From Escherichia coli (GTDB lineage: Bacteria > Pseudomonadota > Gammaproteobacteria > Enterobacterales > Enterobacteriaceae): a stretch of DNA of 535 bases. The notes beneath the pieces were generated by a model. It did no database searches. It was not told the origin of the DNA and worked only from the letters and a program-made list of their open reading frames with translations. Positions 1 through 330 of this stretch are shown one piece after another (positions within the stretch are counted from its first letter, which is position 1; the number at the start of each line of letters is the position of its first letter). The stretch lies in NCBI RefSeq assembly GCF_003334385.1, contig NZ_QOWN01000169.1. The stretch is one strand, 5' to 3'. A program made the translations under genes and the position numbers.

Positions 1-330
1 CATGCCAGTGCCATGCGTGATAAAGGCGGGCGCTATGTTTTCCTGATCAAAGCTGCCACCAGCGAAGTGTGGTGGCCGGAAGATGCAGATCATATTGCTT
101 TTATTCGCGGGCGTATTGGTTTTGAACTGCCTGCCTGGTTTATCCCGAAGGATGAGAAGCAGGTGCCGACAGGCGCTTTCTTCGCTGGTGCTATTGCTGT
201 TTTCGACAAGACCTGGAAGGGACCGGCAATCAGCTACATCGGGCGCGATGAACTTGAGGCATGTGGTGAGGCCTTTCTGGCGCAGGTTCGCCAGCAGGCA
301 GAAAAACTGGTCAGGGAGATGGCGGCATGA
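1..330 (+). CDS. Hypothetical protein of unknown function, possibly 5'-partial. The ORF track gives 13..330 (105 aa, MRDKGGRYVFLIKAATSEVWWPED...). Frame 1 is open from base 1 (cat gcc agt gcc precede the ATG), so the true start may be ATG 13 or lie upstream of the window.
   Basis: Uninterrupted frame-1 ORF ending at TGA 328-330. No purine-rich Shine-Dalgarno in bases 1-12 ahead of ATG 13, which favours an upstream start. Its stop overlaps the start of the downstream LexA-like gene, implying a co-transcribed, translationally coupled real gene. I recognise no family motif: there is no HEXXH, no Walker motif and no obvious HTH. Confidence 0.65.
   Translation, partial: HASAMRDKGGRYVFLIKAATSEVWWPEDADHIAFIRGRIGFELPAWFIPKDEKQVPTGAFFAGAIAVFDKTWKGPAISYIGRDELEACGEAFLAQVRQQAEKLVREMAA
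313..329 (+). promoter_or_regulatory. Ribosome-binding site (AGGGAG, 313-318) plus the ATGA stop/start overlap (327-330) that couples translation of the LexA-like gene to the upstream gene.
   Basis: AGGGAG at 313-318 with an 8-nt spacer to ATG 327-329. The TGA stop of the upstream ORF occupies 328-330, so the start and stop codons share bases 328-329 within ATGA. Confidence 0.7.

Follow-up and report, generated by a model that had tools for sequence, protein, structure and literature searches.

An ATGA stop-start overlap joins dam to a gene for a LexA DNA-binding-domain-only protein in the early-right operon of an SfV/Stx2c-type Escherichia coli prophage

INTRODUCTION

What kind of regulator is encoded by a LexA-like gene whose start codon is embedded in the end of another gene, and on what does its expression depend? 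The question is raised by the window, i.e., the whole stretch of 535 nt of Escherichia coli DNA analyzed here, in which the stop codon of a first gene (gene 1) overlaps the start codon of a second one (gene 2). A preliminary description of this DNA had proposed that the LexA-like gene is the second gene of an operon, that this sets it apart from autoregulated lexA, and that its expression depends on transcription and translation of gene 1. Here, we place the junction within its prophage, compare it with related loci, and weigh these proposals against other explanations.

RESULTS

The start codon of gene 2 is embedded in the 3′ end of gene 1

Frame 1 of the window is open from base 1 up to a TGA at 328-330, the stop codon of gene 1. 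Frame 3 has a stop at 267, and its next start codon is ATG 327, from which it is open through base 535. The ATG of gene 2 (327-329) and the TGA of gene 1 (328-330) form an ATGA overlap at 327-330. The sequence at 313-330, AGGGAGATGGCGGCATGA, also includes AGGGAG at 313-318, a Shine-Dalgarno (SD)-like motif located 8 nt ahead of ATG 327 and within gene 1. The preliminary description had correctly placed both the ribosome-binding site and the start codon of gene 2 inside the 3′ end of gene 1. The features of the window are as follows.

1-330, plus strand: Dam N6-adenine DNA methyltransferase gene, 3′ 330 nt, residues 109-217 of 217 (open frame 1, PF05869, TIGR01712)
313-318, plus strand: SD-like AGGGAG of gene 2, within the Dam coding sequence (sequence reading)
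327-330, plus strand: ATGA stop-start overlap, the exact edge of the Dam and LexA-DBD (DNA-binding domain) cassettes (sequence, ends of BLAST matches)
327-535, plus strand: gene of the LexA-DBD-only phage protein, 5′ 209 nt, residues 1-69 of 108 (translation, PF01726, phrog_362)
410-428, plus strand: internal AGGAGG (410-415) and in-frame ATG 426 (Met34), a rejected alternative start; AGGAGG encodes the conserved Q29-E30-V31
441-482, plus strand: codons of the predicted recognition helix, residues 39-52, SVNAAVEHLRALEK (alignment with E. coli LexA; helix 40-52 in the structural model)

Homology supports ATG 327 as the true start, because the Pfam model, E. coli LexA and the homologues all align from residue 1. 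Positions 1-65 of the PF01726 (LexA_DNA_bind) model pair with residues 1-65 of the gene 2 product, the alignment with E. coli LexA starts from LexA's Met1, and homologues down to about 40% identity have the same start position. Initiation at Met14 or Met34, raised earlier as alternatives, was ruled out on the same grounds. A start at Met34 would in addition delete helices 1 and 2, and the AGGAGG ahead of it merely codes for Q-E-V, of which E30 is invariant.

Gene 1 encodes a phage Dam methyltransferase and gene 2 a LexA DNA-binding domain without a peptidase domain

Gene 1 codes for a phage Dam N6-adenine methyltransferase of 217 aa and corresponds to the full gene at 8677-9330 of L001, an 18.5-kb locus that represents the closest annotated relative. 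The product matches Pfam PF05869 Dam (1.2e-45) and TIGR01712 phage_N6A_met (255 bits, cut-off 97), and it is annotated as Dam in about 1,670 E. coli records.

In the gene 2 product, which has 108 aa, a LexA winged-helix domain is followed by a short linker and a pair of helices at the C terminus. PF01726 is matched over residues 1-65 (3.4e-19), and residues 1-108 match profile positions 1-106 of 106 of phrog_362 (2e-58). It is 51% identical to residues 1-68 of E. coli LexA. The AlphaFold (AF2) model has a mean pLDDT of 84. It shows a winged helix-turn-helix, then a linker modelled with low confidence (71-74), and finally one helix at 75-88 and another at 93-103. The best structural match found by Foldseek is 3JSO, the operator-bound E. 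coli LexA, with an rmsd of 0.9 Å over 68 residues.

In E. coli LexA, genetics and the 3JSO structure show that S39, N41, A42 and E45 read the CTGT half-site. The recognition-helix region of the gene 2 product is RSVNAAVEHLRAL, versus RSPNAAEEHLKAL in E. coli LexA. The stretch RSxNAAxEHLxAL shares 10 of its 13 positions with the host protein; S39, N41, A42, A43, E45, H46 and L47 of the LexA recognition helix are retained, and the wing residues R64 and G65 are also kept. With a recognition helix so close to the one in E. coli LexA, the gene 2 product plausibly has a LexA-like DNA specificity.

The C-terminal part is where the two proteins diverge: E. coli LexA (PDB 1LEA, 1JHH, 3JSO), whose N-terminal winged helix-turn-helix the phage protein shares, carries an S24 domain with a Ser119/Lys156 dyad, whereas the gene 2 product has a 40-aa helical tail instead. 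The Pfam search gave no PF00717 match in the latter, which stops at residue 108 and cannot be cleaved in cis. With TIGR00498, the lexA equivalog model, the score is 67.5 bits (cut-off, 110.95), and the match covers model positions 1-91 only. Family members have 106-111 aa and retain the helical tail at identities ranging from 97% to about 40% and in different genera. Its residues A97 and L101 are invariant among homologues, and the conserved amphipathic tail may be a dimerization element. A putative Ala-Gly cleavage-site remnant in the tail was considered but appears unlikely: 'LLAGEE' of the gene 2 product aligns with the LexA cleavage-site motif 'VAAGEP', but the dipeptide is not conserved among close homologues, which have LLANEE or LLVGEE.

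Of four LexA-defining features, three are lacking: the S24 domain together with a score at equivalog level, autoregulation through SOS boxes, and a place as first gene of its own unit. Unlike lexA, gene 2 is phage encoded and internal to an operon, with neither SOS boxes nor a promoter of its own. Judged from domain content and profile scores, its product is a phage paralogue and is not a LexA orthologue nor the SOS master repressor. To contrast its gene organization with that of autoregulated lexA, as had been done, is therefore a category error, as the protein has PF01726 alone, scores below the equivalog cut-off and lacks S24. With PADLOC models, the LexA-DBD protein and its neighbors gave marginal generic matches only (CARF3, 4.7e-4; PDC-S22, 1e-6, for KilA-N), and neither the phage records nor the papers retrieved in our literature searches assign a tested function to the enterobacterial protein.

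The junction belongs to the early-right operon of an SfV/Stx2c-type prophage

The window is 99.8% identical to a prophage in E. coli HB-Coli0 (NZ_CP020933), with a single mismatch at base 294. Of 5,426 complete E. coli genomes, 2,288 (42%) contain a match, as do 50 deposited phage genomes and a few phage-plasmids. A protein search identified 61 records, including SfV, SfII, SfIV, the cdtI phage, mEp460 and Stx2a, Stx2c and Stx2k phages.

In L001, the gene order is cro-like, YmfL (CP76), DUF4222, HTH replication protein, PerC, Dam, LexA-DBD, RusA, KilA-N, DUF968, and Q-type antiterminator, and phiSTEC1575-Stx2k (L002) has the same gene map. A divergent control region precedes this array, with an XRE/S24 cI-like repressor gene oriented leftward and the cro-like gene rightward, and lysis and P27-type terminase genes follow Q. 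The LexA-DBD gene is thus 7th of 11 co-directional genes and about 3.25 kb from the start of the cro-like gene, rather than second in an operon as first described. From DUF4222 through RusA, five junctions in a row overlap, with gaps of −11, −4, −1, −4 and −4 nt. The window covers one junction between genes inside the early-right operon of a temperate E. coli prophage of the SfV/Stx2c type.

This arrangement is already known, being annotated in many phages and typical of the nin-type regions of temperate phages. The genes called SfV orf42, 'LexA DNA binding domain protein' or 'LexA family transcriptional regulator' (PHROG 362) are the same gene, with 94-99% protein identity, and are found in SfII, SfIV, cdtI, mEp460, Stx2a_1447, Stx2a_WGPS2, the Stx2c phages and phiSTEC1575-Stx2k. 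In these phages, it occupies the same slot, preceded by dam (or perC), followed by rusA and with overlaps as in the window, from which there is no substantive difference; the SfV record lists it as orf42, "unknown."

Runs of overlapping genes in polycistronic operons, such as the nin region of phage lambda, are translated by coupling or by termination-reinitiation. In the operon described here, the stretch from the replication genes to Q likewise contains a series of short genes in one orientation, which are connected by ATGA or TAATG with the SD in the preceding gene, and gene-sized cassettes are present or absent between relatives. In contrast to lambda, the SfV/Stx2c-type phage has another replication module and a PF03589-type antiterminator.

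A pangenome study of Stx phages reported a LexA pham with pfam01726 only in 15 Stx phages (PMC8136144). We infer that gene 2 probably belongs to it, as pham 237 of that study (PMC8136144).

Promoter, operator and RNA signals around the junction

A consensus scan of the window with a threshold of 9 out of 12 matching positions, which weaker promoters would fail to reach, returned no sigma-70-like promoter site, versus 0.4 expected; no intrinsic terminator-like site was found in the window by consensus scanning either. CTGT-N8-ACAG was absent from the window at 0 or 1 mismatch, and with 2 mismatches there were 2 matches, versus 1.98 expected by chance. These results agree with the earlier statement that the window contains neither a promoter-like pair nor a CTGT-N8-ACAG box.

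Inspection of the upstream DNA for a promoter and operators, which the preliminary description had proposed, was carried out on L001. In the consensus scan of its plus strand, promoter-like sites are absent from 5200 to 13021 and terminator-like sites from 5886 to 11464; a strong terminator, made of a hairpin and a T-run, lies 3′ of Q at 12739-12760. In the 135-bp intergenic region between the cI-like and cro-like genes, which has no promoter at the 9-of-12 threshold either, ACAACTT(T/A)A occurs four times, in this form or as its complement (5969-6054); these copies are candidate operator half-sites of the immunity type. The early promoter would be placed in the cI/cro region by analogy with the lambdoid layout, and TTGTGA-18-TATTCT is a candidate picked by eye.

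L001 contains no canonical SOS box within 9 kb on either side of the junction, and hence no in-phage target of the LexA-DBD protein was found. Matches to CTGT-N8-ACAG with mismatches occur in L001 at chance level only, and with an approximate 20-nt position weight matrix (PWM) built from E. coli SOS boxes, nothing in L001 exceeds shuffled sequences.

The RNA of the junction (window 270-380) is predicted to fold with −38.3 kcal/mol (z = −1.3), and 25 of 200 shuffled sequences fold equally well. The junction RNA thus has no significant structure that would occlude the SD, and therefore it provides no argument for obligate coupling. A repeat search in the window gave short chance matches only. 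Rfam returned for the window a single, sub-threshold match, to the RT-19 sRNA on the minus strand at 345-427 (20 bits versus a gathering score of 78, E = 0.14), which we took as chance.

Strong SOS boxes were observed in three relatives. In phiSTEC1575-Stx2k (L002), a near-perfect E. coli SOS box, TACTGTTTTTACATACAGTA, at 4872-4891 scores 25.8 bits on the approximate PWM, versus a shuffle maximum of 15. It lies within the coding sequence of the cI-like repressor (4408-5100, minus strand) of a phage that also carries the LexA-DBD gene, and it is missing from L001, whose immunity region differs. The two others score, on the same approximate PWM, 20.1 bits (TACTGTAAAAATGTCCAGTT, Salmonella, L008 8904-8923) and 22.5 bits (TACTGTAAAAATAAACAGTG, Citrobacter braakii, L010 10165-10184). 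In both loci, the box lies within an N6_N4 DNA methyltransferase gene located downstream of Q, 8 nt from the annotated 5′ end of that gene. This position hints at control of the gene by LexA or at a start that was called wrongly.

The overlap is conserved behind different upstream genes, and dam and the LexA-DBD gene are separate cassettes

Whole-window matches correspond to the arrangement PerC-Dam-LexA-DBD-RusA, and in 72.7% of the records with a match, coverage of the window is 80% or more. We sampled 60 rows spread evenly down the ranking of 2,297 matching records. The entire window is covered in 43 of the 60. Thirteen start at 327 (one row at 321) and run to 535, with PerC upstream, and two match 1-330 only and have RusA downstream (PerC-Dam-RusA). 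In the locus L003, the TAA of PerC overlaps the same ATG as Dam does elsewhere (...gtgggggcgTAATGacgacg), and in L011 the ATGA of Dam is directly followed by rusA codons, the LexA-DBD gene being absent. About a fifth of the E. coli prophages with the LexA-DBD gene lack Dam, and in these it is PerC whose 3′ end overlaps the ATG and contains the SD. Each of the two genes, Dam and LexA-DBD, is thus an optional cassette that varies independently of the other and is bounded by overlapping start and stop codons.

We then compared the 14 related loci in which the gene is present (L001-L010, L012-L015). All 14 have an [A/G]TGA or TAATG overlap and a GGAG-like motif 7-10 nt upstream, behind four kinds of upstream gene. 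The AGGGAG of the window is also present in L002, L008, L009 and the Dam-RusA locus L011, with GGGGG or GAGGAG equivalents behind other upstream genes. The stop codon of the LexA-DBD gene overlaps the rusA start in 13 of these loci. In all 14, the gene has the early-right operon position between replication or methylase genes and rusA, with both of its neighbors unannotated in L004 and a minus-strand gene between it and rusA in L015. Citrobacter and Salmonella have the same module with 64-87% protein identity, and the overlap and the position upstream of rusA are kept. Homologues with 43-51% identity, on Enterobacterales-like contigs, also start at an [A/G]TGA overlap after GGAG or GAGGAG, and what precedes them is a gene for a C5-methylase, for a replication protein or for a longer Dam.

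A lone 4-nt overlap is not rare, but its conservation here exceeds chance. The overlap is not specific to gene 1, since it is kept behind PerC, a C5-methylase, a replication gene or Dam. It is a conserved, selected feature of the operon, with no specific tie between the LexA-DBD gene and Dam.

DISCUSSION

Taken as a whole, we consider it very likely that the junction works as part of an SfV/Stx2c-type early-right operon and that the LexA-DBD gene is expressed with that operon. The gene would be silent in the lysogen. Inactivation of the cI-like repressor would be followed by delayed-early transcription from the early rightward promoter, about 3.25 kb upstream; gene 2 has no detected promoter of its own and lies inside a polycistronic unit, and its transcription from upstream follows from these two observations. 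For translation, ribosomes ending at TGA 328-330 may restart at ATG 327, or initiation may occur directly at the SD of gene 2, which is a good one, or both, and translational coupling to the upstream gene is plausible. The compact overlap would hold the output of gene 2 roughly equal to that of its neighbors. As gene-sized cassettes are exchanged at these junctions, selection would retain the SD and the overlap whatever the upstream gene. The LexA-DBD protein itself would be a DNA-binding regulator of the early lytic phase that is beyond inactivation by RecA, with LexA-type CTGT half-sites, or a phage-specific variant of them, as its presumed target.

The locus might alternatively be a two-gene unit in which a LexA-type repressor is subordinate to transcription and translation of the methyltransferase gene. 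The ATGA overlap and embedded SD, the lack of a promoter or SOS box in the window, and the fact that Dam precedes the LexA-DBD gene in about 72% of E. coli occurrences are all compatible with this explanation. However, the unit comprises 11 genes and not 2, Dam and the LexA-DBD gene are each absent from some prophages carrying the other, distant homologues are found behind unrelated genes with the same overlap, and the product has no S24 domain and is no LexA orthologue. The PerC-LexA-DBD and Dam-RusA arrangements largely refute subordination to gene 1, which we regard as very improbable. Of the earlier claim that expression of gene 2 needs gene 1, the dependence on transcription from upstream holds, while gene 1 as such appears dispensable, given the prophages that have no Dam.

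Some lambdoid accessory genes have their own promoters, and a weak internal promoter in Dam (or PerC) could drive gene 2 independently of the early operon, possibly in the lysogen. Our scan, with its threshold of 9 of 12, would miss weaker sites. Nevertheless, no promoter-like site was detected in the window or on the L001 plus strand between 5200 and 13021, and the upstream sequence differs wholly between the arrangements while the overlap is still kept, making an internal promoter improbable. That gene 2 is a functionless, decaying pseudogene truncated from a full-length LexA or a cI-type S24 repressor could be argued from the end of its product, which is where the LexA linker would end, and from the alignment of 'LLAGEE' with 'VAAGEP'. 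This is hardly credible for a gene that is intact in thousands of genomes, whose product keeps its length of 106-111 aa and its helical tail down to about 40% identity in different genera, and whose stop codon overlaps the start of the next gene in 13 of 14 gene-carrying loci; the A-G dipeptide itself varies (LLANEE, LLVGEE). Expression as part of the early-right operon is the explanation that we retain.

The only characterized analogue found in the literature searched is gp6 of the Bacillus tectivirus GIL01, a truncated LexA homologue of 66 aa consisting of a DNA-binding domain (Fornelos et al. 2018, PMC6182141). It is encoded by ORF6, in the early operon after the DNA polymerase gene, and it activates the late promoter P3 at a GaCACAn nTGTGaC site (PMC6182141). 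Like gene 2, it represents a phage-encoded LexA reduced to its DBD, inside an early operon rather than in the position of an autoregulated first gene. Unlike the gene 2 product, gp6 has no tail, and late genes of the SfV/Stx2c-type phage have the Q antiterminator. No candidate palindrome comparable to the gp6 late-promoter site was identified in L001. BLASTP of the 108-aa protein against gp6 gave no alignment at E ≤ 100, and therefore gp6 represents an independent capture, from a Gram-positive LexA.

The host-like recognition helix raises the idea of a RecA-proof 'mini-LexA' that acts on SOS boxes, the helical tail replacing the cleavable dimerization domain. We think this unlikely, but it would have consequences if true. 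Expressed after the SOS response has destroyed both host LexA and the phage repressor, such a protein would re-occupy SOS boxes and shut down or retune the host SOS regulon during lytic growth. LexA-controlled rivals would also be hit, i.e., antirepressors of other prophages, colicins and SOS-induced defenses. In some relatives (phiSTEC1575-Stx2k and those of Salmonella and Citrobacter), the mini-LexA might act on SOS boxes within the phage.

ATGA overlaps are the default joints in phage early operons, and the gene organization found here is as such of little importance. The junctions are nonetheless exact cassette boundaries and provide a clean example of lambdoid mosaicism at gene borders. 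Also of modest use is the observation that about 40% of complete E. coli genomes have prophages, Shiga-toxin phages among them, that encode a LexA paralogue reduced to its DNA-binding domain, with a recognition helix like that of the host protein. If the LexA-DBD protein modulates the SOS regulon during induction, this would bear on the induction biology of Stx phages. Within prophages, a gene annotated as 'LexA family' is not to be equated with the SOS master repressor.

Other proteins with a LexA DNA-binding domain came up in the course of this analysis. Several metagenomic proteins of about 160-220 aa (P0153, P0162, P0127 and others) have two tandem LexA DNA-binding domains without S24; from this domain arrangement, they are predicted covalent pseudo-dimers, another route to a non-cleavable LexA-like binder. 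Four database ORFs (P0024, P0092, P0098 and P0121) join the C terminus of Dam to the LexA-DBD protein, in P0024 by an in-frame join with a deletion across the ATGA overlap. These fusion ORFs are probably assembly or frameshift artifacts, or else rare deletions.

Lastly, many phage records call the Dam gene 'phosphoadenosine phosphosulfate reductase'. This misnaming appears to stem from phrog_33262, a fusion family of 495 positions to which the Dam protein matches within positions 283-492 only.
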